From contig JANXDI010000012.1 of NCBI GenBank assembly GCA_025059595.1, positions 1 through 32,000 on the forward strand: 32,000 bases of DNA, given 5' to 3'. Below are positions 2,850-22,689 of the stretch, piece after piece. The notes beneath the pieces are model-generated. The model ran no database searches. It was given only the letters and a program-made list of their open reading frames with translations, and was not told the origin of the DNA. The position numbers and the translations under genes are program-made. The DNA is from Candidatus Calditenuaceae archaeon. Its GTDB lineage: Archaea > Thermoproteota > Nitrososphaeria_A > Caldarchaeales > Calditenuaceae. Every line of letters begins with the position of its first letter. Within the stretch, counting starts at the first letter, position 1.

Positions 2850-4820
2850 TTGTCCCAGAAATGCTTTAATAACCCAGCCGTTAATGTATTTTCTAAGTTG
2901 GTCCAAGAGGCGAAGGAAGAGAAGGAGGTAAAGGTAAAGGAGAAGAAGGAGAAAAAGAAGGAAAAGAAAGAGGAGATAATCAAGCAGTGGAGGGGGATAG
3001 ACGTTAAGCCGCTTAACCCCTCCTTCGAGATTCTCGACAGATACGTAATGAGGGAGAAATTCGCTGAGGTCATTATAGCCTCTCCTCCCGGCAGGATTGT
3101 TGAGCCGATATACTACGTTGTTGAGACCCCCCTCACGCCCAAAGAGGAGACCGCTCTGGAGAAAGTTAAAGACATTCTGACCAAGGAGCTCGACTTCCCC
3201 AAAATTGGCGAGGAAGAGGAGGTTAGGAAGATTATTCACGACACCACCTTGAGGGTTATCAAGAAGTATAAGCGGGCGGTGGGAATGCCTTCTCTTTCAG
3301 ACGAGGTCGTTGAGAAGTTCTTGTACTATATTGATAGGGACCTCATGGGTTTCGGCCCGCTCAACGTGATTATGGAAGACTTCAAGGTCGAGGACATTTC
3401 ATGCGACGGGCTCAACATCCCGATTTACGTCTGGCACAGGGACTTCGAAAGCATGCCCACCAACGTCTCCTTCACGGATAGGGAGGCTCTCGACGACTTC
3501 ATAATTCATCTAGCCCATAAGGCGGGTAAGCACGTCTCATCCGCCTTCCCCATAGTGGACGCCATGATTTACGGGAAGCACAGGCTCGCCGCGACTTTCA
3601 GGGAGGAGATTTCTCCGCGCGGGAGCACCTTCACGATTAGGAAATTCAGGGAGAAGCCATTCAGCGTAACCGAGCTCATACTCAGCAACGTCCTGAATAG
3701 CGAGATGGGCGCGTATTTCTGGCTCCTACTCGAGAACAAGGCCAGCCTCATGCTAATAGGAGCGACGGGCAGCGGAAAGACAACCCTCCTAAACGCACTC
3801 ACGACCTTCATCAAGCCTAGGATGAAAATAGTCACATGCGAGGAGACCGCTGAGATTAACATTCCAAGGGACAACTGGGTCAGGTTTGTTACGAGAGAGA
3901 GCTACGGCCTCGGTGCGACGGAGAGGGGCGAGGTGGCCCTCTTCGACCTCGTTAAAACTAGCCTCAGGTATAGGCCAGACTATCTTCTAGTCGGTGAGGT
4001 TAGGGGCGAGGAGGCCTTCGTCCTCTTCCAAGCCATAGCGACCGGACACGGAGGCCTGACCACCGTCCACGCCGAAGACGTTGAGAGCGCGATTAAGAGG
4101 CTTATGAGCCCGCCGATGAATATTCCCGAGACACACATCTCCCTTCTCGATGCAATGGCGCTGATTCAGAGGGTCCAGCTCCGCGGCAAGACCCAGCTCT
4201 ACGGCAGGCGCGTCAGGTTCATCTGGGAGGTTGAGGACGCCCACAAATACAGGAAGATAGCCGAGTGGGACCCTGTCACGGACACGTTCAGGGTAAACTT
4301 CGCTAATAGCCTCCAAATAGAGAACATCTCGCTGATGAATGGTATTAGTAAGGAGGACCTCATGCTTGAGCTCTGGAGGCGGAAGGAGCTCCTCGAGTGG
4401 ATGCGAGAGAACAAGATAACAGACAACGACAAAGTCGCGAGCATTATCCTCTCCTATTACGCAGACCCTGAAAAGCTGATTGCCGAGGCGGGAATCACTG
4501 TTAGGAGGCCGCCTATTCCCGCTGTGGCAACGCCTAGGAGGCTGGAGACCGTCGCTCTGCCCACCGCGCTACCGTCCGTGGTCTCGAGCTCTCCGCAGCC
4601 AGCTGCTCCGACCGTTAGTGCGGAGGAGCTGGAGAGGGAGGTTAAGCCGATAGCCGACTACATCGTTGAGGCTATTCTCAAGAGGAGTGGCCCGACTCCG
4701 TATTGGCAGGTCTTCGTAAAGACGCCCTATCCGAGGGACGTGATTATCAGGGCTATGCGCTACCTGAAGGACAAGAGACGCATCGATATTATCGGCGGCG
4801 TTGTAGAGCTTATGGAGTAG
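2850..4820 (+). CDS. type IV filament assembly ATPase (FlaI/PilB/VirB11 superfamily) with extra N- and C-terminal regions
   Basis: Walker A GATGSGKTT, Walker B/Asp box DYLLVGEVRGEEA, His box GHGGLTTVHAED. The N-terminal domain pattern EPIYYVVETPLTPKEE is typical of archaeal FlaI-like ATPases. The exact start is uncertain (TTG 2850 or TTG 2898), but it must lie upstream of ATG 3047 because the conserved N-domain begins before it. Confidence 0.9.
   Translation: MSQKCFNNPAVNVFSKLVQEAKEEKEVKVKEKKEKKKEKKEEIIKQWRGIDVKPLNPSFEILDRYVMREKFAEVIIASPPGRIVEPIYYVVETPLTPKEETALEKVKDILTKELDFPKIGEEEEVRKIIHDTTLRVIKKYKRAVGMPSLSDEVVEKFLYYIDRDLMGFGPLNVIMEDFKVEDISCDGLNIPIYVWHRDFESMPTNVSFTDREALDDFIIHLAHKAGKHVSSAFPIVDAMIYGKHRLAATFREEISPRGSTFTIRKFREKPFSVTELILSNVLNSEMGAYFWLLLENKASLMLIGATGSGKTTLLNALTTFIKPRMKIVTCEETAEINIPRDNWVRFVTRESYGLGATERGEVALFDLVKTSLRYRPDYLLVGEVRGEEAFVLFQAIATGHGGLTTVHAEDVESAIKRLMSPPMNIPETHISLLDAMALIQRVQLRGKTQLYGRRVRFIWEVEDAHKYRKIAEWDPVTDTFRVNFANSLQIENISLMNGISKEDLMLELWRRKELLEWMRENKITDNDKVASIILSYYADPEKLIAEAGITVRRPPIPAVATPRRLETVALPTALPSVVSSSPQPAAPTVSAEELEREVKPIADYIVEAILKRSGPTPYWQVFVKTPYPRDVIIRAMRYLKDKRRIDIIGGVVELME
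2912..2976 (+). repeat. polypurine tract encoding a Lys/Glu low-complexity segment
   Basis: 65 nt contain only two pyrimidines (t2929, t2935), and 2936-2976 is uninterrupted purine. It encodes KEEKEVKVKEKKEKKKEKKEE in the N-terminus of the ATPase ORF. Confidence 0.8.
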
Positions 4821-6594
4821 TCTGGAGCTCGAACAATCCTACTGTTATATTTCCGGATAACCATATGGCTATGAGGGAGATTACTGACATTATTATGGCG
4901 TGTTTGAATCCTCCGGCTATCGTTGAGCCTGAGATTTTACCGGCGACTATTCCGCTTATGACTGCGATTATTATGACTGGTGGGAGGAAAAAGTGTATGA
5001 ACTCAGCGGACGATATGCTTAGGCGGGCAAGCTTCAGCAGGCCCTTCATGAAGGAGACAAGTATGACTACGACGACTATGAGGAGGACCGCGGTGAGGTA
5101 GGGAATAATCATCAGCGGCTTCAGCGTTGCGCGCTTCTGCCTCTCAATCTCCTCCAAGTCCTCCGAGAACGTGGCGAGAACTTCGAATGTCTCCGGCGCT
5201 CCGCCGCCGACATCTATCGCGTCTATCAGTATGAAGACTCCCGCCCTCTCGAGCCAGCCGTAGGTCCGCTTGGCAAAGTCCTCGTAAATCTTTCTGAGGG
5301 GCATTCCCCAGCCTATCTGCCTAGCCATGATTTTGAGGTGTTTGCTGAAGGCTCCGTAGGGGTTTCGCGAGAGGTCGATGATGCACCTCTCGGGGCTTAG
5401 GCCGGTCTTCCTGACCTCCGTGATGTCTCTGAGGAAGAGTGTGAGACCGTGGACGACTGAGAAGTTCTCGGAGCCATATCTCTGGTATGCGATTGCGGCT
5501 GGTGTGAAGAGGATTATGGAGAAGAGGATGAGGGCTATGGAGGACTCGTAGCCCATCTCGATTCCCATGGCCTTCCTTATCTCGACTATGATGCCGGATG
5601 TTATGTCGAAGGGCGGGATGTATTGCAACTCTGTGAGGAAGAAGGGCACCGCGAAGAGAGCGAGGAAAGCGAAGGCCGCGGGCATGGTGAAGTATAGGAC
5701 CCTCATCGGCCTCGGGTCTGTTATTGGGTATTTCGGCTGGCTTATGTCTGCGAGGTAGAGGAAGAGCACCGCGAGGAGGGGTAGGAAGAGGTAGGCTATC
5801 ATGGCGAACTGCTCGGAGGGCATTATGAGGAACTCGGTGGGGAGGGCTCTTGAGACTATGTAGATTGTGAATAGGACGAGTGAGAGCATCATCGTTATCG
5901 CCGCGTAACCCTCCATCAGCATGCCCATCCTCTCACCCACGATACGCATCTTACCCATCCGCGAGGTGAAAATCTGCTCCGTCTTCCTGATGAGGAAGTG
6001 GACCACGTCTCCGCCGCTCCGAATCGTCGAGGCGTAACCCATGAGGAGGTCTCTATACTCCTTGCTGGGTAGGCCTTTGGCCATCTTCTCGATTGCCGAG
6101 ACAGGGTCGAGTCCGCCGACCTTGACGTTCAGGTCTGCGAGCTTGGCGGCCTTGGCTATGTTGGGCATGAGCTGGCTCTGGGCGAGCCGTGAAAGGCTTT
6201 TGTATGGTGGTATTCCGCCTGTGGACATGACTGCGAGGTAGGCGGCGGCGTAGGGGACCTCGCTCTCGAAGAGCGTCGCGGCGGAGGAGGCAGCCATGTA
6301 TGGCCAAGCAAGCCCCAAGCCGAGGGCGATCAGGGGGATACTCCCAATGAGCCCAAGCCCAATTAGGCTGCCTGTGAAAAGATAAACAACAACGGCCAAG
6401 GGGATGGAGATTATCGCAGTTACCACCACCACAGCAGCCACAATTGAAGTGAAGACCTCCGGGTAGATGCGTTTCCCAGCGCTCTCGAGCTTGGATGGTA
6501 TTCCCGGCGCTATTCGGAGAAGAAGCGTCCCAAGACCCCTAAAGTTCGAGTATGAGAAGCTGGTGAAAGACTCGCTGAACCCCATGACTAACAA
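4810..6594 (-). CDS. FlaJ/TadC-type polytopic membrane platform protein
   Basis: 594 aa with two soluble T2SS-F-like segments (e.g. GYASTIRSGGDVVHFL and IMARQIGWGMPLRKIYEDF...IDAIDVGGGAPETFE) separated by clusters of TM helices. It sits next to the ATPase. ATG at 6594 lies about 20 nt downstream of a TATA box. Confidence 0.85.
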   Translation of the reverse strand: MLVMGFSESFTSFSYSNFRGLGTLLLRIAPGIPSKLESAGKRIYPEVFTSIVAAVVVVTAIISIPLAVVVYLFTGSLIGLGLIGSIPLIALGLGLAWPYMAASSAATLFESEVPYAAAYLAVMSTGGIPPYKSLSRLAQSQLMPNIAKAAKLADLNVKVGGLDPVSAIEKMAKGLPSKEYRDLLMGYASTIRSGGDVVHFLIRKTEQIFTSRMGKMRIVGERMGMLMEGYAAITMMLSLVLFTIYIVSRALPTEFLIMPSEQFAMIAYLFLPLLAVLFLYLADISQPKYPITDPRPMRVLYFTMPAAFAFLALFAVPFFLTELQYIPPFDITSGIIVEIRKAMGIEMGYESSIALILFSIILFTPAAIAYQRYGSENFSVVHGLTLFLRDITEVRKTGLSPERCIIDLSRNPYGAFSKHLKIMARQIGWGMPLRKIYEDFAKRTYGWLERAGVFILIDAIDVGGGAPETFEVLATFSEDLEEIERQKRATLKPLMIIPYLTAVLLIVVVVILVSFMKGLLKLARLSISSAEFIHFFLPPVIIIAVISGIVAGKISGSTIAGGFKHAIIMSVISLIAIWLSGNITVGLFELQTTP

Positions 6595-6708: not shown

Positions 6709-7110
6709 ATGATGAATAGAAGAAAAGCAGGTATCAGCCCGGTCGTAGCAACGGTGATACTCGTCGCAGTAGCAATCGTAATAGCCATCGCGGTAGCCTT
6801 CTGGGCCTCAGGACTCGTAGGAGTCTTCACAAGATTCGAAAAAATAGAGATACAAACAGCATACTGGGACGGAGAAAGAGTCGTAGTGATTGCGAAGAAC
6901 ACCGGGTCAAGCCCAGCAGTAGTAGACATGATATTAGTGAACGGATTGCCCTGCGTAACGGCAACAAACATAGCACTTCCGGTGGGAGGCTCAGCCATCA
7001 TCAATGTCAGTGTAGGAGCCACCTGTGTTCAACAAGGAGGCATTACTAACGAGATTGCACTCCACACAACTAGCGGAAAGACCTACCCAGTAGCGGTCCT
7101 CGTACCGTAA
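6709..7110 (+). CDS. archaeal type IV pilin-like protein (class III signal peptide), candidate major pilin
   Basis: N-terminus MMNRRKAG|ISPVVATVILVAVAIVIAIAVAF has a short basic leader, Gly at -1, and a hydrophobic helix, as in the archaeal pilin N-terminal domain. This is followed by a small beta-rich domain (VVVIAKNTGSSPAVVDMILVNG). 133 aa with two Cys. Confidence 0.85.
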   Translation: MMNRRKAGISPVVATVILVAVAIVIAIAVAFWASGLVGVFTRFEKIEIQTAYWDGERVVVIAKNTGSSPAVVDMILVNGLPCVTATNIALPVGGSAIINVSVGATCVQQGGITNEIALHTTSGKTYPVAVLVP

Positions 7111-7214: not shown

Positions 7215-8117
7215 TTGAGCCGCGCCGGGCATAGGCCTCTCCGCACGCTGGTGGTAATCTGCGCATATAATGAGGAGAATAGCATCGCCACGCCAGTCGC
7301 TCAGGCCATCCGAGAAGGCTTCGAGGTTCTGGTCGTTGACGACGGAAGCGAGGATAGGACGTCGGAAATCGCTAAGGCCCATGGTGCCGAGGTAATCAGA
7401 AACGACGTGAGGGGTGGAAAGGCTTTAGCGCTGAGTAGAGCGATATCTTACGCGAAGGAACATGAATACGAAGCGATAATTGAGGTAGGTGCAGACGCGG
7501 TGCCGGTAGAGGGAGGCATAAGCAGGCTATACAGATACCTCACCCTTCCAAGCGTAGGAGGTGTCTCGGCGCGCCAAATACCACTGGGGAGTGGGCCGGC
7601 ATACAGGATTGATGAGCTCATGTGGAGCATTCTAGCGGAGGGGAAGTCGCTTCAGCAGAGGCTGGGCAGGCAGGTCCACCTCGGCGCGGTGATGTATGGT
7701 GCCAAACTCAGGCACATTAGGGCAGTTGCAGGGGTAATCAACGATGACGAGTTCGTCGGCATACTCGTGAGCAGAGACGGTGGGAAAAACTACTTCGCGG
7801 AGGACTGCGTAGCCTATTTCGACGCATCCTCATCAATAAAGCACCTCTTCAATAGAAGGAAGCGCATGATATTGGGGCACCTCCAGCTCGGAAAATCAAC
7901 CGCGCCCAGCATGCAGCCAAGCATACTCACAGCCGCAACACTACTAGCAATAGTCAAGAAAACGTCCAGACTGATGTGGCTTGTACCTGCCCTAATAATC
8001 GAAATAGCGGCGCGCTTGTCGGCATTTAGAGATTCGCGAAAAGTCGATAAACTGGCGGAATACGTTAGGTGGCACACGCATGGAATGAAAAAACCGATAC
8101 AGCGCCATGTAACATAA
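7215..8117 (+). CDS. family 2 glycosyltransferase (polyprenyl-phosphate sugar synthase-like)
   Basis: N-terminal GT-A signature VVICAYNEENSI...VLVVDDGSEDRTSEIA and a C-terminal hydrophobic segment (LTAATLLAIV...WLVPALIIEIAA), as in DPM/ArnC/GtrB-type enzymes. TTG start. Confidence 0.85.
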   Translation: MSRAGHRPLRTLVVICAYNEENSIATPVAQAIREGFEVLVVDDGSEDRTSEIAKAHGAEVIRNDVRGGKALALSRAISYAKEHEYEAIIEVGADAVPVEGGISRLYRYLTLPSVGGVSARQIPLGSGPAYRIDELMWSILAEGKSLQQRLGRQVHLGAVMYGAKLRHIRAVAGVINDDEFVGILVSRDGGKNYFAEDCVAYFDASSSIKHLFNRRKRMILGHLQLGKSTAPSMQPSILTAATLLAIVKKTSRLMWLVPALIIEIAARLSAFRDSRKVDKLAEYVRWHTHGMKKPIQRHVT

Positions 8118-8169
8118 AGGCTAGCTAGGAGCCGTTATACGATGAGATTGAATTTTGTAATCGACGCCT

Positions 8170-8586
8170 TCAGATTCTTCCAATCAGTATGGCGCCCACT
8201 ATTATGAGGGCCACACCTATCCACTGCTCTGGGGTGGGTTTCTCGCCTAATGCTAAGATTCCGACCAGAACTATCGAGAGGATTGATAGTGAGAGGAAGA
8301 ATCTTCCCAGCATTACTCCGAGGTCGCTGTAAACCCAGTAGCTTAGGACAGCGACTGTGAAGCCCGTAAGCATGGCGAGTATGAACCACTTATTGAAGAA
8401 GAGCGTGAAGAGAAATGTCAGGGAGACCTCAGGCGCGCCGACCTCCCTCAACGCGAATCCCCAGAAGAGCGTGTTCAGCCCCACAAAGACGGCGACGAGA
8501 AGCCCAACAACCCAGATTGTAGAGTCCACTCCTCCCCCTCCTCGGAGCATTGTTCGCGGAGATTGCGGATATAACTCTTCAAACAC
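8170..8586 (-). CDS. small single-EamA-domain membrane protein (ArnE/F- or SMR-like candidate flippase)
   Basis: 138 aa with 4 predicted TM helices. The C-terminal GEKPTPEQWIGVALIIVGAILI is the typical EamA domain end. The start may instead be the internal Met (MLRGGGG, 8550). Confidence 0.6.
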   Translation of the reverse strand: MFEELYPQSPRTMLRGGGGVDSTIWVVGLLVAVFVGLNTLFWGFALREVGAPEVSLTFLFTLFFNKWFILAMLTGFTVAVLSYWVYSDLGVMLGRFFLSLSILSIVLVGILALGEKPTPEQWIGVALIIVGAILIGRI

Positions 8587-8657
8587 TCTGAGGGAGCGAG
8601 CATATCAAGGGATTAATAGGGCGGCTGCCGGCTCTTGGCCGGTGCGCTGACAGGGGC

Positions 8658-10007
8658 GTGAAGAGAGGCGGAGACGGCTGGAGGACGGTGGCCACGCTTG
8701 CCCTAATAGTCTCCTTAGGGTTCGCGATACGCTTCACCATCTGGATATACCCAATGTATGGTGTTCAGAGCCTACTAATCTTCGACACGGGTTCTTACCC
8801 CATCTTCGGGCTGGCCTACATTCACGCGATAACCACGATGAACTTCACAGCACTCACCAGCATAAACCCGGGCGTCCCACCCATCGGCATGCTCCTCACA
8901 GGCCTATCAACGCAGACGTTTGGAGAGCTTATCGGCCCGATCCAAGCCAGCCTCATCCCACCTGTCACGGCCTCAGCCCTCACAGCAATCCCAGCCTACC
9001 TCATCGCCAAGAGATATGCGGGGAGGGCGGCCCTTCTGGCCCCGGCCCTCGTGTCGTTCGACCCATTCCTAATCCAATTCTCCGCAACGTACCTCGACTC
9101 CATCGGTACGCTTTTCGCAGCGGCGTCGGCCGCCTACGTCATCGATTCGAGTAGCAGAAGGTCCTTCAGTCTCGCCATCTTCTTCGCCACCCTCGCAGCT
9201 CTGACAAAACTCTCGTTCACCATCTTCACGGCGATATTCGCGCTCCTCCTACTCCTCAACAAGGAGCTCACTGCGAGGAGGGCTATCCTCTACCTGCTTA
9301 TTCCGCCAGCCTCGCTGGTCCTCAGCCCCGGTGTCTGGAGACCCTCCAACATCGGGGCCATAGTCGAGGGGCATCTCGCCTTTAACAACGTGCCTCTTGC
9401 GCCTCTCCTCAGCCCATTCGTCATAGACGTCCCACTATCCCTACCTTGGCACATCCTCTCATACCTCGGAATGGGTCAAGTCTCATGGAACACTCTGCCG
9501 CACGTAACGCCGCTGGCCGTCCTCCTGATGGTGGCCTACCAAGCCGCGAGAAATGAGTTGCGGATACCTCGTGGCGCCGCGATTCCAGCCTCGGCGATAG
9601 TCTTGGCAATCTTCCTGCTGCCGAGGGGCTACTGGACCTACAGCTGGGCCGGGGGCGCCGTTCAGGGGGTTCTGGCGCGCCAGTTCTATCCCTACTACTT
9701 CTACCCTGTAGGCCCCTTCCTAGCAGTCTTAGCGGCGGCAGTCTTCGCATCCGACGCAGGCCACAGACCCGCGGGCAGACTCGCGACCTACCCCGCACTG
9801 CTGGCCGCCCTCGTCTCGCCGCTAGCCGTGGTGATGAGCTTCGGCCTCCCCTACTGGGACTTCATCTTCAACCTAATCTACAGCGCCTCGCAGGGAAGCT
9901 GGATGGCGGAGGGGATAGCGGCCGCGGGCATCACCACGGCCATTCTCGCCGCGGTCTTAGCGGCAGCCGAGCTGATACACAGACGGGCACAACGAATAGG
10001 GGGTTAG
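8658..10007 (+). CDS. polytopic membrane protein, putative GT-C fold glycosyltransferase (ArnT/PMT-like)
   Basis: 449 aa with about 11-12 TM helices. The first extracytoplasmic loop carries an acidic/aromatic motif (LLIFDTGSYPIF) in the position of the GT-C DE/DxD loop. It is adjacent to the GT2 and EamA genes. Family assignment is inferential. Confidence 0.5.
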   Translation: MKRGGDGWRTVATLALIVSLGFAIRFTIWIYPMYGVQSLLIFDTGSYPIFGLAYIHAITTMNFTALTSINPGVPPIGMLLTGLSTQTFGELIGPIQASLIPPVTASALTAIPAYLIAKRYAGRAALLAPALVSFDPFLIQFSATYLDSIGTLFAAASAAYVIDSSSRRSFSLAIFFATLAALTKLSFTIFTAIFALLLLLNKELTARRAILYLLIPPASLVLSPGVWRPSNIGAIVEGHLAFNNVPLAPLLSPFVIDVPLSLPWHILSYLGMGQVSWNTLPHVTPLAVLLMVAYQAARNELRIPRGAAIPASAIVLAIFLLPRGYWTYSWAGGAVQGVLARQFYPYYFYPVGPFLAVLAAAVFASDAGHRPAGRLATYPALLAALVSPLAVVMSFGLPYWDFIFNLIYSASQGSWMAEGIAAAGITTAILAAVLAAAELIHRRAQRIGG

Positions 10008-10023: not shown

Positions 10024-11328
10024 TTAAGGAGCCTGCGAGGCAAGAGGTGCTCTGCAGGCCGTCATGACGTTTCCTCCCTCAACCCACCACTTACAGACGT
10101 AGACCACCCCTAATATCTCAGGAGAGCGGAAGTCAAACCGCCCGTAGTTGTCGCGAGTTATGAGGCCCTGCGCCCCATCCAGTCTAATCCTGTAGATGAA
10201 GAAGCCTCCATAATCCTTCTTACTCGTGCCAGGGTCCGTGACTTCTATCGTGAAGAAGCCCAAGTAAGAGGTCCCTGGCGAGAGAGTCGGGATGCTCTGG
10301 CTCAGAGGCGAGGCATTCAAAGTAATATTATTAAACGATACAAACTCTAAAACAACATTAACGTTTCTCAGAGGCTCCGTTATGTTCCCAAGCGTTACAA
10401 TGTAGGGTATCGTAACATTGACCTCCAAGTCGCTCCCATTCATCAGGACCATCATGTTCCTCTGAAGCGTCATGACTTGGAGCGGAATCGGCCTCGGCGG
10501 GTCAAGCCTCACACCGACATCAACATGGACCACTACGTGGCTGCTGGCTACGACTCTTACCGGGTTGGGTGATACGTTGGCGCAGGAGCCGCCCGTCAAA
10601 TACGGGCACTGGAGGGCCCGCACCTCGTAGACGCCTGGCGCGATGTTGAACGCGAATACGTCGCTCAGGTCTTCGACCCTCGACACGAGCCTGCTCATTA
10701 CCGCCTTTTCCCTACAACCTGTCGCGAACTCCTCGCCCCTTACGGAGACGCATCCCCTTGTCATGTTGACGTTCACGTCGTCCTTCACGACAGACACCTC
10801 AACCTCGTATCTGTGACCTAGGCTTACGTTGCTTAACTGAACCATCAGGAGGTAGGGTAGCTTGTTCGGCCCGATTGGCTCCCCTGACACAAAGCTATTC
10901 CCCCTAAGGGTTGGGGCCCTCAAGACAACCACCTCGTTAGGCTCCAGATAGTAGTTTAGAGGCTTCATCAGAATGGCGCCGGGAGGAAGCTTATATTGCT
11001 CGTCGACAACCTGGAGGCCGAACCTGTTACTCTCGATATAGAGCGTAGGCACTGTAATCTCTATCGGCCCCCTATTCATCATCGTCAAGTATAGAGCCCT
11101 CTTTTGGAATGGGTGGAGCTCGGGGGGCTGCATCGTCAGAGTTATCTCCAGCTCCTCGTTAAGCTTCTCCACCTCGAACTGAAGCCTCCTCGAGACCTCA
11201 TCCATGAAGAGGGTCTGGAGCTGCTGAATATAGAGCCACATCGGAATCATGACGGTGAAAAATATCATCACCGCAACCGCCGTCCCAACCACCGCGGAGA
11301 TACCTGCCGACCTACTGCGACGCCCCAT
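10024..11328 (-). CDS. large pilin-like surface protein (class III signal peptide), 434 aa
   Basis: MGRRSRSAG|ISAVVGTAVAVMIFFTVMIPMW prepilin-like N-terminus, then the module LYLTMMNRGPIEITVPTLYI that resembles the first beta domain of the small pilin. 8 N-x-S/T sequons and 6 Cys in three close pairs. ATG lies 1 nt after the upstream stop. Confidence 0.7.
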   Translation of the reverse strand: MGRRSRSAGISAVVGTAVAVMIFFTVMIPMWLYIQQLQTLFMDEVSRRLQFEVEKLNEELEITLTMQPPELHPFQKRALYLTMMNRGPIEITVPTLYIESNRFGLQVVDEQYKLPPGAILMKPLNYYLEPNEVVVLRAPTLRGNSFVSGEPIGPNKLPYLLMVQLSNVSLGHRYEVEVSVVKDDVNVNMTRGCVSVRGEEFATGCREKAVMSRLVSRVEDLSDVFAFNIAPGVYEVRALQCPYLTGGSCANVSPNPVRVVASSHVVVHVDVGVRLDPPRPIPLQVMTLQRNMMVLMNGSDLEVNVTIPYIVTLGNITEPLRNVNVVLEFVSFNNITLNASPLSQSIPTLSPGTSYLGFFTIEVTDPGTSKKDYGGFFIYRIRLDGAQGLITRDNYGRFDFRSPEILGVVYVCKWWVEGGNVMTACRAPLASQAP

Positions 11329-11329
11329 C

Positions 11330-11857
11330 TCAGTTAGCCACCCCCGTCCTCGTAACCGTTATCGTGATAACCAACGTTGTGGTAGTGGTTGAGGTGACTA
11401 CCGTCGTCGTCGGGACAGTTGTGGTTCGGGCGTCAGACGTAGTTGAGACGATTGTCGTGACGGTGGTTGTGGGAGTGGTCACGGTGGTAGTAACGTAGAT
11501 GAAGGCCGTGGTCCGTGTGGTGGAAATAGTATAAACTGTCACCCATTGAGTAATCGTGGTCGTTGAAGTGATGCGCGTAGTGGAAAATGTAGTTGATGCG
11601 CTGGTTACTGTCCGTGTTCCACTTGTAAGAGTCGTGGTTGTGAACCTCGTTGTATAGCTAGTGACAGTTCTCGTGCCCTCGGTTAAGGTCGTCGTCGAGG
11701 ACGTTGTTACCCAGCTCGTGGTCGTGGTGGTTGTTGTCGTGGTGGTCGTGACAACCCTGAAGGTCTGGGCCAACCCAGAGAGGCTCAACGTAAGAAGCAC
11801 GATAACAGCTAGCGCAAGAGCTAGTGCCTTCCCGCCGCGCCTTACTCCCTTATCCAT
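11330..11857 (-). CDS. secreted Thr-rich low-complexity protein, 175 aa
   Basis: ATG start with a Sec-like signal peptide (KALALALAVIVLLTLSLSGLA|QT), followed by about 140 aa dominated by Thr/Val/Ser. This includes an 11-Thr run and an internal repeat TLTEGTRTVTSYTTRFTTT / TLTSGTRTVTSASTTFSTT. It overlaps the upstream gene by 16 nt. Confidence 0.65.
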   Translation of the reverse strand: MDKGVRRGGKALALALAVIVLLTLSLSGLAQTFRVVTTTTTTTTTTTSWVTTSSTTTLTEGTRTVTSYTTRFTTTTLTSGTRTVTSASTTFSTTRITSTTTITQWVTVYTISTTRTTAFIYVTTTVTTPTTTVTTIVSTTSDARTTTVPTTTVVTSTTTTTLVITITVTRTGVAN

Positions 11858-12426
11858 GAATTAACCCACCTCCTAATTAGAGGATACACAACTAGCGGCC
11901 CTAGGGAAAGATAGAGCATTACCTGCCAGCCGAGCGGCCACCAATGAGGCACGAATATAAACGCTTCACCTGAGCCCTGACCACTACCACCCCCCACAGT
12001 CGTCGTGCTCGTCGTCCTGCTCGTTACAGTCGACGTGACATACACCGTAGAAGTGAACGTGCTTGTCAATGTCCTCGTGGTGGTGAAAGTCGTGGAGACC
12101 GATGTGACTGTGTTGGTTATAGTCGGGCTAAAAGACGTGCGAACCACAGTCACTACACTGGTTATCGTAGAAGTTCGAGTAGCGGTGAAGCTCGTCGTGG
12201 TGCGTATCACGATATGTGTTCCGGTTGATACGACCACGGTGGTTACCCTAGTCACTGTCTCTGGAACTGTTCGCGTCGTTGAGGGGGTTACTGTTGTGGA
12301 CGTAGATACGATGGTCGAGACGGTTGTAGTGGTTGTCCGCGGAATGGTCGTCGTAGTGACTCTTGTAGTGGTCATAGTCACGGTCTCCGTGACCGTTGAC
12401 GTTGTTGTGGTGGTGATTATAGGGGT
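11333..12426 (-). repeat. extreme Thr-codon (ACN) low-complexity coding region spanning two adjacent genes
   Basis: The plus strand is strongly G/T-rich (GTN/NGT). The minus strand encodes T/V/S/R-rich sequence in residues 381-524 of the 574-aa protein (11995-12426) and residues 36-175 of the 175-aa protein (11333-11752). Confidence 0.85.
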
Positions 12427-13566
12427 GACATCCATGGTCCTCACAACAACTCTGCCGATGTCGAAGACATATACGGGCGTGTCGAGCACAACGCTGTACT
12501 GGTTGATAATCAGGGAAAGGCCGCCCATCAATATCTGGACCCTGAGAATGCCCCGAGCGATCAGCACGTTGTTGCAGTCGTATATCTCGACAACAAGCTC
12601 GTAGTCACCGTCCTCCCAGAAGCCAATCGAGAGGATCATCTCATCGATTCTCATATTATTGAGATTAAGCCGCATTTTGGAGTAGTCGATGTAGTTTCCG
12701 AAGCTGCTCGGGAATCCCCAGCTTTGGGGGAGTATTGTGACGTCTGGCATGAGGGATTGAATCTCGACTACTAGAGGTGTCCGGAGACCGCCCCTATCGA
12801 GCTGGACGTAAACCTCTTGTGGTAGGTCGCCGGTTACTCTCGCAGTCCCCCTAGCAACCACTCCATTCGCATCCGTGACTGTTACTTGGAAGTCGTAGGA
12901 GGCCATTCTTCTGCTGGCGTTGAGCAGCCTGACTTTGATGAAGTCTGTTGTGACTCCGTAGATGTTCTCCTCCTTGGGGTCCACCAGCTCTATCAGGAGC
13001 CAGTGGTTTGTTGGGAGTTCGCAACCACTTGCTAGACCATAGCGCGGCTCAGAGGCCTCGAAGGTCGCTACCTTGAAGAGAAGCGTCTCGCTGTCCGGCT
13101 TGGAGAGGGCCGGGTTGTCAGGGTCGTAGAGCTGCTCCGGAATGTAGTGGACTTGAACGAGTATTCTGTCGCCCGGAGAGCAGACGCTACCGGGGCATCT
13201 GAAGGCTAAGGCTGTTCTCTCATTTACCGGGATTCTGGCGTGGTCGTCTATCCCGGAATCATAGACCACGGTGCCATTCTTTATGGTGAGTATTCTGAAG
13301 ACGATGACCGGCTCCCTGCCCGTGTTTCTTAGAAGCATGACGCCCCTGTCGGCTCCGCCAAAGATTTTATCAGGATAGTAGACATATTCTGCGCCTATGT
13401 TAGACCTGAGGATTAGCGCCTGGTCGCCCAGCTGTCTAACCTCCTCCTGACGCCAGACTCCCGCATAGCTACTTAGAAAGACCCACAGGGCTATACCGGC
13501 GGACAAGACCGCCGCAAGTATCAACACAGTCGAAACGATCTCGCTGTATCCTCTTTTCCGCCTCAT
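11842..13566 (-). CDS. large pilin-like surface protein with Thr-rich stalk and C-terminal hydrophobic anchor, 574 aa
   Basis: MRRKRG|YSEIVSTVLILAAVLSAGIALW class III-like signal. A body of about 340 aa is colinear with the upstream 386-aa protein. This is followed by a 144-aa Thr/Val/Ser/Arg region, a GGGSGQGSGE linker and a hydrophobic tail WWPLGWQVMLYLSLGPLVVYPLIRRW. Confidence 0.75.
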   Translation of the reverse strand: MRRKRGYSEIVSTVLILAAVLSAGIALWVFLSSYAGVWRQEEVRQLGDQALILRSNIGAEYVYYPDKIFGGADRGVMLLRNTGREPVIVFRILTIKNGTVVYDSGIDDHARIPVNERTALAFRCPGSVCSPGDRILVQVHYIPEQLYDPDNPALSKPDSETLLFKVATFEASEPRYGLASGCELPTNHWLLIELVDPKEENIYGVTTDFIKVRLLNASRRMASYDFQVTVTDANGVVARGTARVTGDLPQEVYVQLDRGGLRTPLVVEIQSLMPDVTILPQSWGFPSSFGNYIDYSKMRLNLNNMRIDEMILSIGFWEDGDYELVVEIYDCNNVLIARGILRVQILMGGLSLIINQYSVVLDTPVYVFDIGRVVVRTMDVTPIITTTTTSTVTETVTMTTTRVTTTTIPRTTTTTVSTIVSTSTTVTPSTTRTVPETVTRVTTVVVSTGTHIVIRTTTSFTATRTSTITSVVTVVRTSFSPTITNTVTSVSTTFTTTRTLTSTFTSTVYVTSTVTSRTTSTTTVGGGSGQGSGEAFIFVPHWWPLGWQVMLYLSLGPLVVYPLIRRWVNSWIRE

Positions 13567-13567
13567 G

Positions 13568-14698
13568 TTAATACTCCTCCACCAGCACGTCTATGCGCGC
13601 TATATCCATCAATAGGATTGGGGGTACGTCAACGAACACTGAGTCTGTGAAGATGCCCCTCGGTACGTTCGTAATTACGAACCTAGATGTGATTAGCTCG
13701 CCGTTACAGTCGTACAGGTTTACGGTTATCCTGTATCTTCCACCCACTAGGTCGTTGACGCCCAGCTCAACCTCAACCACGTCAACCATCTTCTCAGCAT
13801 TTGACCATAGAGTCACTCCCGAGGCATGAGCCTTCCAAGGTATTCCTCCTAGCCTCCACTCACGCTGAAGCACGTTAAACCCGGCAGCCAGAACATGGAT
13901 GCGGAGGGGGGTCTGAAATCCTCCGAAACTGCCTGTGAAACTATACATCTCGTTGCCGATGGTAGGCACGTTGCGTGTAGCGAATCCGTAGGCGCCGGAC
14001 GCGTTGATGACTTGTATATCAACTGAGACTGTGGCACTTGAGGATGCGTAGGGAAATCTGGCATGGATTCTGTTGTTAGGTTGCGACGGAATCTTTCCCG
14101 TGTCACTATATGTGACTGGGTCTATCACATCCACCGTCATCCAGTTGGGGGGTAAGGGGCATCTAGCCGCTACTCCGCCTGGCGGATAGACAAAGACCGT
14201 CTCAACATATCGCATCTCATCCGCAGACAGGACTGGATTCTCCTCGTTAAACAGGGCGGAGGCGACATACCAGACCCTCAGCCTCAGAGTCTCCAAAGGA
14301 AGGCATGTGGCGCAGAGGGGTATAACGCCTCCGCTTAGTGTGGCATTTCCGCTGGGGAGTAGCTCGGCCAGCTCGGTGAAGCCGGTCGACGGATACGAGG
14401 CTTTTAGTGCTCCTCCCGGGGTCAATATCTCTATTCTAGTGACTATGACTGGCACATCCGCTATGTTTCGGAGAATGATGCTTCTCTCCCTGCTTGTGAA
14501 GTTAACAGCCTCGAAGGAGAGCTGGGCCGATGTCTTGACTAGGAGTATAGCCCTGTTAGCCTCGTTGGTGGAGGATTGGAGCGTGGCGCCAAGCCACCCG
14601 GAGGCCACGCCGAGGATGAATATTCCCATGCCTACCGTTAGGGCGGCCAAGATAACAGCCCCTATAGTAGTGTCTCCATTACTCCTCCCCCTCGTCAT
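13568..14698 (-). CDS. large pilin-like surface protein, paralog of the 574-aa protein
   Basis: With ATG 14698 the N-terminus is MTRGRSNG|DTTIGAVILAALTVGMGIFILG, a short basic leader plus hydrophobic helix. The ORF extends to GTG 14728. Colinear motifs shared with the downstream paralog include RYRITVNLYDCNGELITSRFVI vs DYELVVEIYDCNNVLIARGILRV and CPLPPNWMTVDVIDP vs CELPTNHWLLIELVDP. Confidence 0.75.
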   Translation of the reverse strand: MTRGRSNGDTTIGAVILAALTVGMGIFILGVASGWLGATLQSSTNEANRAILLVKTSAQLSFEAVNFTSRERSIILRNIADVPVIVTRIEILTPGGALKASYPSTGFTELAELLPSGNATLSGGVIPLCATCLPLETLRLRVWYVASALFNEENPVLSADEMRYVETVFVYPPGGVAARCPLPPNWMTVDVIDPVTYSDTGKIPSQPNNRIHARFPYASSSATVSVDIQVINASGAYGFATRNVPTIGNEMYSFTGSFGGFQTPLRIHVLAAGFNVLQREWRLGGIPWKAHASGVTLWSNAEKMVDVVEVELGVNDLVGGRYRITVNLYDCNGELITSRFVITNVPRGIFTDSVFVDVPPILLMDIARIDVLVEEY

Positions 14699-14753
14699 AC
14701 GCCGTCGACGGCCGCCCAGTATAACCACCTTCTAAAGCCTATGAACCTAACAG

Positions 14754-14827: not shown

Positions 14828-14900
14828 CATTTTCGCACACCTGGTTAGGTTAATTATAACTATTGGCCATAGCTGTTCGGTTCATTAGAAAGCTAAAGAT

Positions 14901-14912
14901 TCTTATATCATT
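14901..14912 (+). promoter_or_regulatory. TATA box candidate for the membrane/zinc-ribbon gene
   Basis: TCTTATATCATT lies about 25 nt upstream of in-frame GTG 14932. The stretch 14863-14930 is AT-rich and unlikely to be coding. Confidence 0.35.
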
Positions 14913-14931
14913 AAAAGACCTTCATCTAATA

Positions 14932-16602
14932 GTGTGTAGTGGTGTGACGCGCCAAGTATCATCCCTCAATAGGATGCTCGGGTTCATGGGCTTATCGCTT
15001 ATGTTGTCGTTCGCTTCTTGGATTGTCGGTGGCGAGTTTTTCAGGATTGTGATAAGCTCAGTCCTGCCTTTCGAGGAGCCTTTAAGAGCTTATCCCTCAT
15101 ACGCCTTCACAGGCCTGATACTCGGGGCGATGAACGCCCTCATCCTATACAAGTTAGTCAGTGGTTCGAAAGGGATTCTGGCTTTTATGGCTTTGGGGGC
15201 TGTCGCGGGCTGGGGAGGCGCCTTTGCTCTGACGATTTTTGCCAGCATATTTGACGTCTCTGTTGTATTGGGCTGGGCTTTAGGGCTGGCTACCTTTATC
15301 CTCATTATGCTTGGTCTGGTGAGGCTTTTGGCGATTGAGGCTATGAGGCCCCAGCTTCAGCGGGAGAGAGGTCAGATTGTTCAACTGCCTCCACAGACAA
15401 AGCCTCAGCCCGCACCAGCGATAACTGCTCAAGAACCATCTGCCCAGCCACCGGCCCAGCAACCAGAGGAGGCTCCACCCACTCCGCCTCCAACCTCAGC
15501 AGCAACTCCTCAGCCCCCTCCCACCGCACTGGCCGAGGCTAAACCATCTCCGGCTGCTCCAGCCACTATTCCTCCCCTGACGACCATTATTCCACCCACC
15601 CCTCCGCCACCGTCAGAGCCTACTCAGAGTATCGATGAGCTCGAGGAGGTGCTTGTAGAGATTATAGCTGAGGAGGGAATTACGGAGCTTATTCCGCTTC
15701 CAAACAACACGTCGCCCGAGGGCGGCTCTTATCCTGAGATTGAGTCTAAGCTTGGAGTTGACACAACTACGCTCCTCAAGGTTGTGAAGAGGCTGATGGA
15801 TAAGAATTATGTCAGGCTTTCCGGGGTGGAGTTTAAGAAGGTTGCCTGCCCTCACTGCCAGAGTGCCCTAAACGTCCTTAATCTTAGCTGCAGGGCCTGC
15901 GGCTCGACCAACATCGGGAGGCAGAGGATTCTTCAGCACGAGGCCTGCGGTTATCTCGGGCCTGAAGACAGCTTCACCGTCGGCGGAAGAACCATTTGTC
16001 CGCGCTGTGGAAGCGGTGTGAAGATTCTGAGGGGCCCGCTCGAGGAGGAGCATGAACAGATACTCAAGGTCCACTCAAGCTTCTTCATTTGCTACAACTG
16101 CAACGAGGTCAGCCCAGACCCCCACATCTCCTTCAGGTGCCTTACCTGCGGACTAGACTATGACTTGAGCGGCTTCGAGTTCAAGACCTTCTACAGATAC
16201 GCAATCAACCCCGAAATGATAAGCGGGCTGCAGGAGCAGAAGAGGCCGATTAGGCTAATCGCTGAGGAGTTGAAGAGGCTTGGATTCGAGGTTCAGATTG
16301 GGGCCCGGATTACGGGGGCGTCGAAGGTCCGGCATAAGGTTGACCTTCTCTACAGCCGCCTCGGCCAGACTAGGGGGGCTGTCTTCCTGTTCAGCGATAG
16401 GGGGGGCATGAAGATTCACGATGTGATGAAGATTATTGTTATGAAGGCGGACACTAGAATAGACAGCGTCAAGATACTCTGCCTCGGACAGCTGGACAAC
16501 GATTCGAAGAGGCTGGCCGAGCTTTACAATATTTTGGTCATCGAGAATATAGCTTCGAAGGAGCTGGCGACTGACGTTATGCCGCGCATAGTCTCCGCGT
16601 AG
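14932..16602 (+). CDS. membrane-anchored protein with Pro-rich linker, winged-helix-like segment, three zinc ribbons and a C-terminal alpha/beta domain
   Basis: 4 N-terminal TM helices, then a linker of about 95 aa rich in Pro/Ala/Gln (PPQTKPQPAPA...PPTPPPPSEP). Next comes an HTH-like segment (SYPEIESKLGVDTTTLLKVVKRLMDKNYVRLSG), the Cys motifs CPHC..CRAC, HEAC..CPRC, CYNC..CLTC, and a C-terminal domain containing GASKVRHKVDLL. The ORF is open from TTG 14863; the likely start is GTG 14932 or ATG 14974. Confidence 0.7.
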   Translation: MCSGVTRQVSSLNRMLGFMGLSLMLSFASWIVGGEFFRIVISSVLPFEEPLRAYPSYAFTGLILGAMNALILYKLVSGSKGILAFMALGAVAGWGGAFALTIFASIFDVSVVLGWALGLATFILIMLGLVRLLAIEAMRPQLQRERGQIVQLPPQTKPQPAPAITAQEPSAQPPAQQPEEAPPTPPPTSAATPQPPPTALAEAKPSPAAPATIPPLTTIIPPTPPPPSEPTQSIDELEEVLVEIIAEEGITELIPLPNNTSPEGGSYPEIESKLGVDTTTLLKVVKRLMDKNYVRLSGVEFKKVACPHCQSALNVLNLSCRACGSTNIGRQRILQHEACGYLGPEDSFTVGGRTICPRCGSGVKILRGPLEEEHEQILKVHSSFFICYNCNEVSPDPHISFRCLTCGLDYDLSGFEFKTFYRYAINPEMISGLQEQKRPIRLIAEELKRLGFEVQIGARITGASKVRHKVDLLYSRLGQTRGAVFLFSDRGGMKIHDVMKIIVMKADTRIDSVKILCLGQLDNDSKRLAELYNILVIENIASKELATDVMPRIVSA

Positions 16603-22614: not shown

Positions 22615-22689
22615 TGCTCCGGCCGGGATTTGAACCCGGGTCTCCGGCTCGAAAGGCCGGCATACTTGTCCGGGCTATACTACCGGAGC
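22615..22689 (-). tRNA. tRNA-Glu (anticodon UUC)
   Basis: Reverse complement GCTCCGGTAGTATAGCCCGGACAAGTATGCCGGCCTTTCGAGCCGGAGACCCGGGTTCAAATCCCGGCCGGAGCA. Acceptor GCTCCGG/CCGGAGC, anticodon stem CCGGC/GCCGG with loop CTTTCGA, T-arm CCGGG-TTCAAAT-CCCGG. No encoded CCA. Confidence 0.9.

Follow-up and report, generated by a model that had tools for sequence, protein, structure and literature searches.

Archaeal type IV pilins, such as the 'flagellar-like' subunit of Pyrobaculum calidifontis (8fk7) and the Aap and Ups pilins of Sulfolobales, have a basic leader peptide with Gly or Ala at -1, a long hydrophobic alpha-1 helix, an immunoglobulin (Ig)-like beta-sandwich with the strand motif xRNxGxxPVxV, and genes linked to a FlaI-type ATPase and a TadC-type platform protein. 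The same features are found in three much larger proteins, here called P1, P2 and P4, which are encoded together with a fourth protein, P3, at 10024-14728 on the minus strand of a 32,000-nt stretch from a Candidatus Calditenuaceae archaeon (contig JANXDI010000012.1, positions 1 to 32,000; this whole stretch is called the window). Unlike the known pilins, the three proteins are 2.5 to 4 times larger, have two or more Ig-like domains appended and score below the curated thresholds, and P2 adds a Thr-rich stalk and a putative C-terminal anchor. What are these proteins for? On balance, they probably serve the clade-4 type IV pilus machine whose genes lie a few kb off, with P1, P2 and P4 as modular accessory (minor) pilins specific to the lineage.

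Bacterial minor pilins, and the complexes that they form at the tip or for priming, have been studied in detail; for archaea, to our knowledge, there is almost nothing beyond a few minor pilins of Methanococcus and some predicted 'adhesin-like' genes. The bacterial modular minor pilins and their complexes include PilB and PilC of Streptococcus sanguinis, GspH-I-J-K of the type II secretion system, and FimU-PilVWX with PilY1 of the type IVa pilus. The present locus resembles them in having a pilin module with grafted modules, several accessory pilins encoded together, and a presumed low-copy role in filament initiation and in adhesion. However, no sequence or domain relationship to them was detected, the modules here are plain Ig-like ones instead of vWA, lectin or beta-propeller domains, and the machine is of the archaeal type and has no secretin. 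The Tad pilus is similar in another respect, since TadE, TadF and the large TadG are also three accessory pilin-like proteins in a Tad/archaeal-type machine, but TadG has a vWA-type domain, and a double anchor as in P2 is not described for it. No homology to TadE, TadF or TadG surfaced in our searches, none of which was aimed at Tad proteins.

Large Ig-fold accessory proteins, predicted to be adhesins or minor pilins, also stand beside the ATPase, platform and pilin genes of other archaea (arCOG05616, arCOG07037 and UpsX/arCOG05986). They are set apart from the present family by arCOG and by lineage (Thermoproteales, Sulfolobales). Large class III or Ig-rich accessory proteins of archaeal pilus loci have already been called 'minor pilins or adhesins' (Makarova et al. 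2016, PMC4858521; Sivabalasarma & Albers 2026), and one large protein beside the pilin, with no arCOG, appears in the 2016 neighbourhood table for Caldiarchaeum (PMC4858521). A search limited to open-access papers found nothing on the P1/P2/P4 family or on a doubly anchored pilin. The kind of protein is already known; the novelty lies in a family outside Pfam and NCBIfam and chiefly in P2, with its two putative anchors and its probable Thr-rich partner P3. The locus would define a compact conserved accessory-pilin set of Caldarchaeales, an uncultivated hot-spring lineage. The members of the set are P1, P2 and P4, to which relatives add a small pilin and a P4 paralogue. If true, the double anchoring of P2 has a bearing on the way in which archaeal pili are held by an envelope without a cell wall.

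Pilin-type architecture and Ig-like domains of P1, P2 and P4

P1 (13568..14728, minus strand) is a modular pilin-like protein of 386 aa when read from a GTG, or of 376 aa when read from the ATG at 14698. Its basic leader, Gly and N-terminal helix lie at about 14531-14698, a pilin beta-sandwich at about 14189-14530, and two further Ig-like domains at 13571-14188, all on the minus strand. P2 (11842-13566, minus strand, 574 aa) consists of a body (12430..13566, minus strand; aa 1-379), which is a paralogue of P1 with a pilin module and two Ig-like domains, and a tail. The paralogues are 25% identical in BLASTP (E 2e-16) over about 380 aa, and in both of them the pilin module occupies the first ~170 residues, ahead of the Ig-like domains. 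The 17 homologues of P1 are all Caldarchaeales-type 'hypothetical' proteins without a Pfam domain, and the identical database proteins are labelled hypothetical as well ('Nitrososphaerota archaeon' metagenome-assembled genome).

How can a pilin be recognised in such proteins? The AlphaFold2 model of P1, built on the family alignment, has a predicted local distance difference test (pLDDT) score of 86, with a helix at residues 9-56 followed by three beta domains. The model of P4 is similar in layout, and in each case a ~48-residue N-terminal helix precedes the beta-sandwiches. Foldseek aligned the P1 model to 8fk7_A, a subunit of the Pyrobaculum calidifontis archaeal type IV pilus (PDB 8fk7), with TMt 0.77 and a root-mean-square deviation of 3.5 Å over 161 columns (probability 1.00); its other matches were multi-Ig arrays, such as macroglobulin domains of complement, RbmA, SiiE and a large adhesin repeat. 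When the P1/P2 profile was searched against all PDB sequences, 8fk7_A was the sole match (E 1.2e-4), and hhalign aligned the profile with the small pilin of the locus at 89.6% probability. An exhaustive search of 1.84 billion representative proteins matched 135 proteins, about 30 of them full-length relatives. Dozens of proteins of 145-190 aa among the 135 align to profile positions 1-160, and many of them have canonical archaeal pilin N-termini (KG/VSPIIA-type, e.g. KGVSPIIAVLLLILIAIAAG and RAISPIIATVLL; here and below a slash marks the putative cleavage site). Multi-PKD giants align to positions 223-286 and 316-357 instead, at E-values from 5e-16 up to the reporting limit of 1e-3, summed over 3-13 repeats. 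The PKD and Ig-like families of Pfam (PF18911, PF00801) were not found in P1 and P2, which had no Pfam match at all even at E<=1, and the likeness to PKD proteins is a remote one only.

Because the structural match to 8fk7_A, the profile match to 8fk7 and the profile matches to archaeal pilins of ~150 aa all fall on the same module, P1 and P2 are each an archaeal pilin module to which two Ig-like, remotely PKD-like domains are added. The pilin fold, a helix with an Ig-like beta-sandwich, is seen in P1, and P2 qualifies through its paralogy to P1. In P2, C124, C129 and C331 align with invariant Cys columns common to P1, and C182 with a nearly invariant column. Together with the linkage to a pilus machine, these results bear out the prepilin-like nature that the original prediction had proposed from the N-termini.

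The N-termini themselves are as quoted there, and three of the four products begin with a basic leader peptide and a Gly ahead of a hydrophobic helix: SNG/DTTIGAVILAALTV in P1, KRG/YSEIVSTVLILAAV in P2 and SAG/ISAVVGTAVAVMIF in P4. Each protein has one strongly hydrophobic stretch, at about residues 6-38. The NxGxxPV-type strand pattern, said to be shared with the small pilin, was found in all of them, as LRNIADVPVIVTRIEIL in P1, LRNTGREPVIVFRILTI in P2, MNRGPIEITVPTLYIE in P4 and AKNTGSSPAVVDMILV in the small pilin. A basic leader, Gly or Ala at -1 and a hydrophobic stretch are kept in 15 P1, 13 P2 and 23 P4 homologues, the conserved Gly before the helix being replaced by Ala in a few, and the class III-type N-terminus of archaeal type IV pilins is thus present in P1, P2 and P4. 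The leaders of the P1 family have the consensus RG/DT, and those of the P2 family read G/YS[DE] or KG/[LV]S. In the P4 family the form is R[SA]G/[IV]S, to which KAG/IS of the small pilin also conforms.

P4 (10024-11328, minus strand, 434 aa) starts with an N-terminal helix (aa 10-56), which is followed by tandem beta-sandwich domains. Its AlphaFold2 model from the family alignment has pLDDT 84, with the helix at residues 10-56 and then the beta-sandwich array. Among the 50 Foldseek matches listed for this model there are Ig-like arrays only, such as the calf and thigh domains of integrins, macroglobulin domains, transglutaminase C-terminal domains and the CupB6 tip adhesin. P4 is related to the P1/P2 profile at 79% probability in hhalign, a relation at profile level only. 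There is a weak similarity to UpsA as well, and the P4 profile had a single weak match among PDB sequences, the prealbumin-like repeat of NOMO (E 0.007), which is a hint to the fold only. Judged from its model, P4 is a pilin-type helix with an Ig-like domain array. The eight N-glycosylation sequons, five of them clustered, and the three Cys pairs noticed earlier in this protein were confirmed by counting. There are exactly 8 N-x-S/T sequons, five of which lie between N297 (NGS) and N338 (NAS), and the Cys pairs are 193/205, 241/249 and 412/425. In composition shuffles of P4 the mean number of sequons is 2.7, with P(>=8)=0.002, and N167, N315, C193 and C205 are invariant in 24 P4 homologues. 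The excess of sequons and the conservation of these residues speak for a part of P4 that is exposed at the surface.

Might the three proteins be ordinary membrane-anchored enzymes with an N-terminal transmembrane helix? A single N-terminal helix is all that speaks for such enzymes. No enzyme fold or catalytic domain was found among the Foldseek matches of P1 or P4, and no catalytic family among the Pfam and NCBIfam matches of P1-P4. The confident models are all beta-sandwich, and what they match are Ig-like arrays of adhesins, integrins and macroglobulins. The original prediction had named enzymes as one outcome that would overturn it and had suggested a structure search for Ig-like or adhesin folds; the search returned Ig-like arrays for both P1 and P4, the CupB6 tip adhesin included for P4. 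Since the folds are all Ig-like, the enzyme reading was rejected, and we give it next to no credit.

Several observations weigh against P1, P2 and P4 being accessory pilins. The strict FlaFind pattern fails for P1 of the window (Asn at -2), for P2 of the window (Tyr at +1), and in 22/24 P4 homologues (Ser or Ala at -2). Pfam gives no match for any of the three, P2 reaches 18.4 bits on TIGR02537 arch_flag_Nterm (cut-off 20), and P4 matches UpsB with E 0.008 and 16 bits (cut-off 70) and reaches no curated pilin threshold. No pilin is among the best 50 P4 Foldseek matches listed, and the alignments under the AlphaFold2 models are shallow, with 24-30 sequences. Pfam scans of the window genes showed no prepilin peptidase gene within the 32 kb. 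The C-terminal anchor of P2, moreover, is hard to square with a subunit that moves outward in a long fibre. As to the other models, P1 and P4 have no match to TIGR02537 or Pilin_N (PF07790), no curated pilin model is passed by P1, P2 or P4, and the Pfam and NCBIfam scans of P1-P4 gave only sub-threshold or spurious matches such as Retrotrans_gag and Col_cuticle_N. The motifs are nevertheless more than chance, since they are kept across the families: of the 15 P1 homologues whose N-terminus is complete, 12 satisfy the strict FlaFind pattern (one further raw match, the 13th, sits inside a truncated sequence and was left out). The small pilin of the locus (KAG/IS) departs from the pattern as P4 does.

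In one alternative, for which the frequent lack of the strict cleavage motif speaks, P1, P2 and P4 stay uncleaved. Their N-terminal helices, and in P2 the C-terminus too, would then serve as anchors of an envelope-spanning scaffold or stator at the pilus base. The three would be comparable to ArlF and ArlG, which are beta-sandwich proteins with pilin-like N-terminal helices, or to the S-layer-like proteins of archaeal pilus loci. The S-layer-type Thr-rich stalk and C-terminal anchor of P2, kept in 19 relatives, would suit such a scaffold, and C-terminally anchored S-layer-like proteins do occur in pilus loci (Makarova et al. 2016, PMC4858521). However, basic residues and Gly or Ala directly before the hydrophobic stretch are kept in all three families, and there is no obvious reason for this in an uncleaved anchor. 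The P1/P2 profile and the P1 model also show that the N-terminal module shares homology with true small pilins and with a pilus subunit of known structure, and no ArlF, ArlG or S-layer family was matched in Pfam or NCBIfam. A scaffold is therefore unlikely in our view, though it deserves to be taken seriously.

Threonine-rich tail of P2 and its probable partner P3

The tail of P2 (11842..12432, minus strand) begins with a stalk of 146 aa, 47% of which are Thr (aa 379-524). A Gly-rich spacer, a C-terminal hydrophobic segment at about aa 536-564 and the basic end RRWVNSWIRE follow. In the window protein the best 19-mer of the hydrophobic segment has a Kyte-Doolittle hydrophobicity of only 1.38; the segment is clearer in relatives, and the same tail architecture was seen in 19/19 long (541-640 aa) P2 relatives examined, distant ones included. 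The layout is that of archaeal S-layer glycoproteins, in which a Thr-rich O-glycosylated region is joined to a C-terminal membrane anchor; the order in the P2 tail is Thr-rich part, spacer, hydrophobic segment, basic end. Unlike in those, the tail of P2 sits on a pilin-fold protein with a class III-type N-terminus, and nothing suggests the formation of a lattice. P2 has no match to the sorting-signal models of NCBIfam (PGF-CTERM and similar). Neither the Thr-rich tail with its anchor nor the nature of P3 was mentioned in the original prediction.

P3 (11330-11857, minus strand, 175 aa) is a secreted Thr-rich protein with 43% Thr, no Cys and no sequons. Its signal peptide is Sec-type (...SLSGLA/QTFR), not class III. 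Orthologues were found in the same position in 14 non-duplicate related loci (16 loci were fetched, three of them copies of one contig), and they share AQTYR, TTTSWVTE, WVTxYT and the ending TVTVTTTTTRTG..N. P3 was found wherever P2 carries the tail. In a distant lineage (L003, L018), the small pilin, P1, P2 and P4 are present and both the P2 tail and P3 are missing, which indicates that the tail and P3 travel together. The public gene calls for one related locus (L001) contain two antisense Val-rich open reading frames (ORFs; 12881-13387, minus strand) in place of the Thr-rich P3 gene, so P3 is probably mis-annotated in databases. In the window there is likewise a Val-rich ORF of 199 aa (12005-12604, plus strand) antisense to the Thr-codon repeats, which was rejected as a gene and taken as an antisense artefact of these repeats. 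The NCBI locus tags of the window genome are 06620 for P2 and 06605 for P4, with room for two called genes where one is seen.

If P1, P2 and P4 are accessory pilins, the following scenario may be proposed. The three proteins would insert into the membrane via their N-terminal helices, and the class III signal peptidase would cut them behind the conserved Gly. On the platform protein, the helices would next join into a bundle that acts as a priming or cap complex. The 133-aa major pilin would polymerise from this complex, and the Ig-like arrays of P1 and P4, glycosylated and stabilised by disulfides, would be displayed for adhesion. P2 would most probably stay at the cell surface and tether the fibre or the complex to the envelope; it is proposed as a tether because its C-terminal anchor, if real, means that it cannot leave the cell. 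With 146 aa, an extended stalk would measure a few tens of nm; an archaeal envelope is about as thick, and the stalk could thus span it. The secreted P3 would probably associate with the P2 stalk. It had been suggested earlier that the large proteins are tip adhesins, minor pilins or subunits of a much thicker filament. The minor-pilin type of architecture holds up, the thicker filament is unlikely, and the C-terminal anchor predicted on the Thr-rich stalk argues against P2 as a free or simple tip adhesin.

A more specific idea is that P2 is a new kind of type IV pilin, a basal anchor or terminator subunit, with its head in the fibre core and its O-glycosylated stalk and transmembrane helix fixing it to the cell. 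The pilus or short pseudopilus would be physically tethered across the envelope, P3 would be a partner of the stalk, and the three genes at 7215-10007 would be a dedicated O-glycosylation system. We see only a small chance for this combination.

Does the tether imply that there is no long pilus? One could suppose that a short, cell-bound pseudopilus, similar to the bindosome, displays the Ig-like arrays of P1, P2 and P4, in the envelope or just above it, for the capture of particles, polymers or partner cells, with no long pilus and no tip complex. As judged from the 146-aa stalk, the P2 tether would restrict extension to tens of nm, and the ATPase and the platform protein score on the BasE and BasF models, below cut-off. 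It has also been argued that class III signal-peptide proteins widely 'functionalise' such machines (Sivabalasarma & Albers 2026, preprint). However, a canonical small pilin is kept on its own transcription unit, neither a substrate-binding-protein fold nor an ABC importer linked to the operon was found in Pfam and Foldseek searches, and the distant lineage has P1, P2 and P4 without tail and without P3. The chance of such a pseudopilus looks slim to us, and accessory pilins of a true pilus are preferred.

Operon structure and conservation in Caldarchaeales

When the ORFs were re-read from the sequence, the four minus-strand genes proved to be as tightly packed as first described, with 1-nt gaps and a 16-nt overlap. 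The P1/P2 junction reads TAA-C-ATG with a 1-nt gap, P2 and P3 overlap by 16 nt, and a 1-nt gap separates P3 from P4. The upstream signals were also read directly from the sequence. GGAGG-like motifs are found 8-10 nt upstream of all three internal starts (P2, P3, P4). P1, the first gene, has no such motif, and the boxes TTTAAAA and ATAGTTATATAG lie about 25-50 nt upstream of its GTG. With a TATA-like box before P1 and GGAGG-like motifs before the internal genes, these signals fit a single mRNA on which the first gene is leaderless. For P1 itself two starts come into question: NCBI takes the ATG at 14698 (376 aa), and the alternative is the GTG at 14728. Initiation at the GTG gives the leader MVILGGRRRRMTRGRSNG, whose length and GGRRR motif match the homologues, and this GTG is at the right distance from the TATA-like box for a leaderless mRNA.

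The unusual size of the products, pointed out from the beginning, is real: P1, P2 and P4 have 376/386, 574 and 434 aa, and the pilin of the locus has 133. Then could they be the major subunits of a separate, much thicker filament? All three do have a pilin-type N-terminal helix. However, three different proteins in a translationally coupled operon would be made in roughly equal, low amounts, which is not expected of one abundant subunit, and P2 is anchored at its C-terminus. There is also a single ATPase/platform pair, which has its own small pilin, and relatives add another small pilin and a P4 paralogue, as in a minor-pilin set. Such a filament is very improbable.

Is the set kept beyond the window? 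The close homologues all come from Caldarchaeales (Aigarchaeota), including Caldarchaeum, Calditenuis, HR02 and Geocrenenecus. With the P4 profile, 18 species-level genome loci were found, and P1 and P2 lie upstream of P4 in all of them where the contig reaches, except that no P2 match passed the filter in the Calditenuis fumarioli locus (L019). The genes of the small pilin, of the platform protein and of the ATPase are within 10 kb where the contig extends, and the gene overlaps of the operon are conserved too. Most relatives have an extra pair of genes, encoding a ~165-aa pilin of the P1-N-module type and a ~395-aa paralogue of P4 (11314-12988 in L005, 16045-17713 in L001, and two copies at 11262-14883 in L007). 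This pair raises the number of accessory pilin-like proteins to as many as five, as is typical of minor-pilin sets. The pair is absent from the window, where the search gave only paralogue-level matches to P2 and P4; either the window locus is a reduced version or the pair is elsewhere in the genome. The pilus genes of a relative, Calditenuis aerorheumensis, were reported to be very highly transcribed in situ in streamer communities (PMC4681859).

Pilus machine and other neighbouring genes

The core genes of the machine lie on the other side of P4. A type IV filament assembly ATPase of the FlaI/VirB11 family (2850..4820, plus strand) matches Pfam T2SSE (8.7e-33) and PilB3_C, and scores 365 bits on the NCBIfam FlaI model, below the cut-off of 550. 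The platform membrane protein (4810..6594, minus strand), which is TadC/FlaJ/UpsF-like, matches Pfam T2SSF (1.2e-21), and its NCBIfam scores on UpsF (83 bits) and BasF (71 bits) are both below cut-off. The small pilin (6709..7110, plus strand, 133 aa; N-terminus RKAG/ISPVVATVIL) is the candidate major pilin. It scores 22.3 bits on TIGR02537, above the cut-off of 20, and has weak UpsA and Pilin_N matches. The linkage of pilin genes to an assembly ATPase and a platform protein is thus seen both in the window and in related loci. By the scheme of Makarova et al. 2016 (PMC4858521), such a set counts as a type IV pilus locus of clade 4 (TACK-type). An archaellum was also considered and rejected, as no archaellum-specific family appeared in the Pfam scans of the other genes of the window and the filament gene encodes a 133-aa pilin; P1-P4 had no FlaF or FlaG match in Pfam or NCBIfam.

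Between the small pilin and P4 there are three further genes, which adjoin the Thr-rich P2 tail and P3. The first encodes a GT2 glycosyltransferase (7215-8117, plus strand; GT2 8.5e-18) with weak matches to polyprenyl-phosphate sugar synthases, the second a small EamA/ArnE-like membrane protein of 138 aa (8170-8586, minus strand; EamA 1e-6, ArnE 6e-4), and the third a PMT_2-related protein of 449 aa with multiple transmembrane segments (8658-10007, plus strand). The window copy of the 449-aa protein has no Pfam match, and a profile search against PDB sequences returned nothing. Its orthologue in L009, which shares 47% identity with it (tblastn E 1e-113), reaches 45.8 bits on PMT_2 (cut-off 26.1); this is the one member out of 10 in the family that reaches the threshold, the window protein and 8 other orthologues having no match. 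Loci of the C. subterraneum type have no 449-aa gene in that position. In its composition the trio resembles the three-part Arn/Gtr-type set for glycosylation outside the membrane, for which it is a candidate. It is also a candidate for modifying the Thr-rich parts of P2 and P3, a link that is drawn from adjacency alone, and in the scenario above the GT2, ArnE-like and PMT_2-like proteins might glycosylate the proteins of the operon. We know of no enzymes of archaeal O-glycosylation identified so far. If the candidate is true, Thr-rich proteins encoded next to PMT_2-like enzymes would make archaeal O-glycosylation accessible to genetics.

On the far side of the operon, divergent from P1, a gene (14863..16602, plus strand) encodes a membrane protein that combines a TackOD1/double zinc-ribbon domain (Pfam TackOD1 5.9e-23) with a Pro-rich linker. 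It is kept adjoining P1 or the ATPase in relatives. It matches arCOG06883, a Zn-ribbon protein that Makarova et al. 2016 (PMC4858521) list for pilus loci of thaumarchaea and next to the ATPase of Caldiarchaeum. The TackOD1 protein may be a regulator or an accessory protein of the locus.

Some other genes of the window should be noticed. A right-handed beta-helix protein of 715 aa (29360-31507) has a Sec-type signal peptide and a C-terminal hydrophobic segment with a basic end (…LALLFMMRRG), in the anchoring style of the P2 tail, and is probably another surface protein. A 507-aa protein with multiple transmembrane segments (1256-2779), which has no Pfam or NCBIfam family, is possibly an ABC-2-type permease. 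Its gene overlaps an ABC ATPase gene (516-1259) by 4 nt, and this pair adjoins the pilus ATPase in L014 as well. Two tRNA genes on the minus strand, at 330-406 and 22615-22689 (Arg-GCG and Glu-TTC), are the only Rfam matches in the window.

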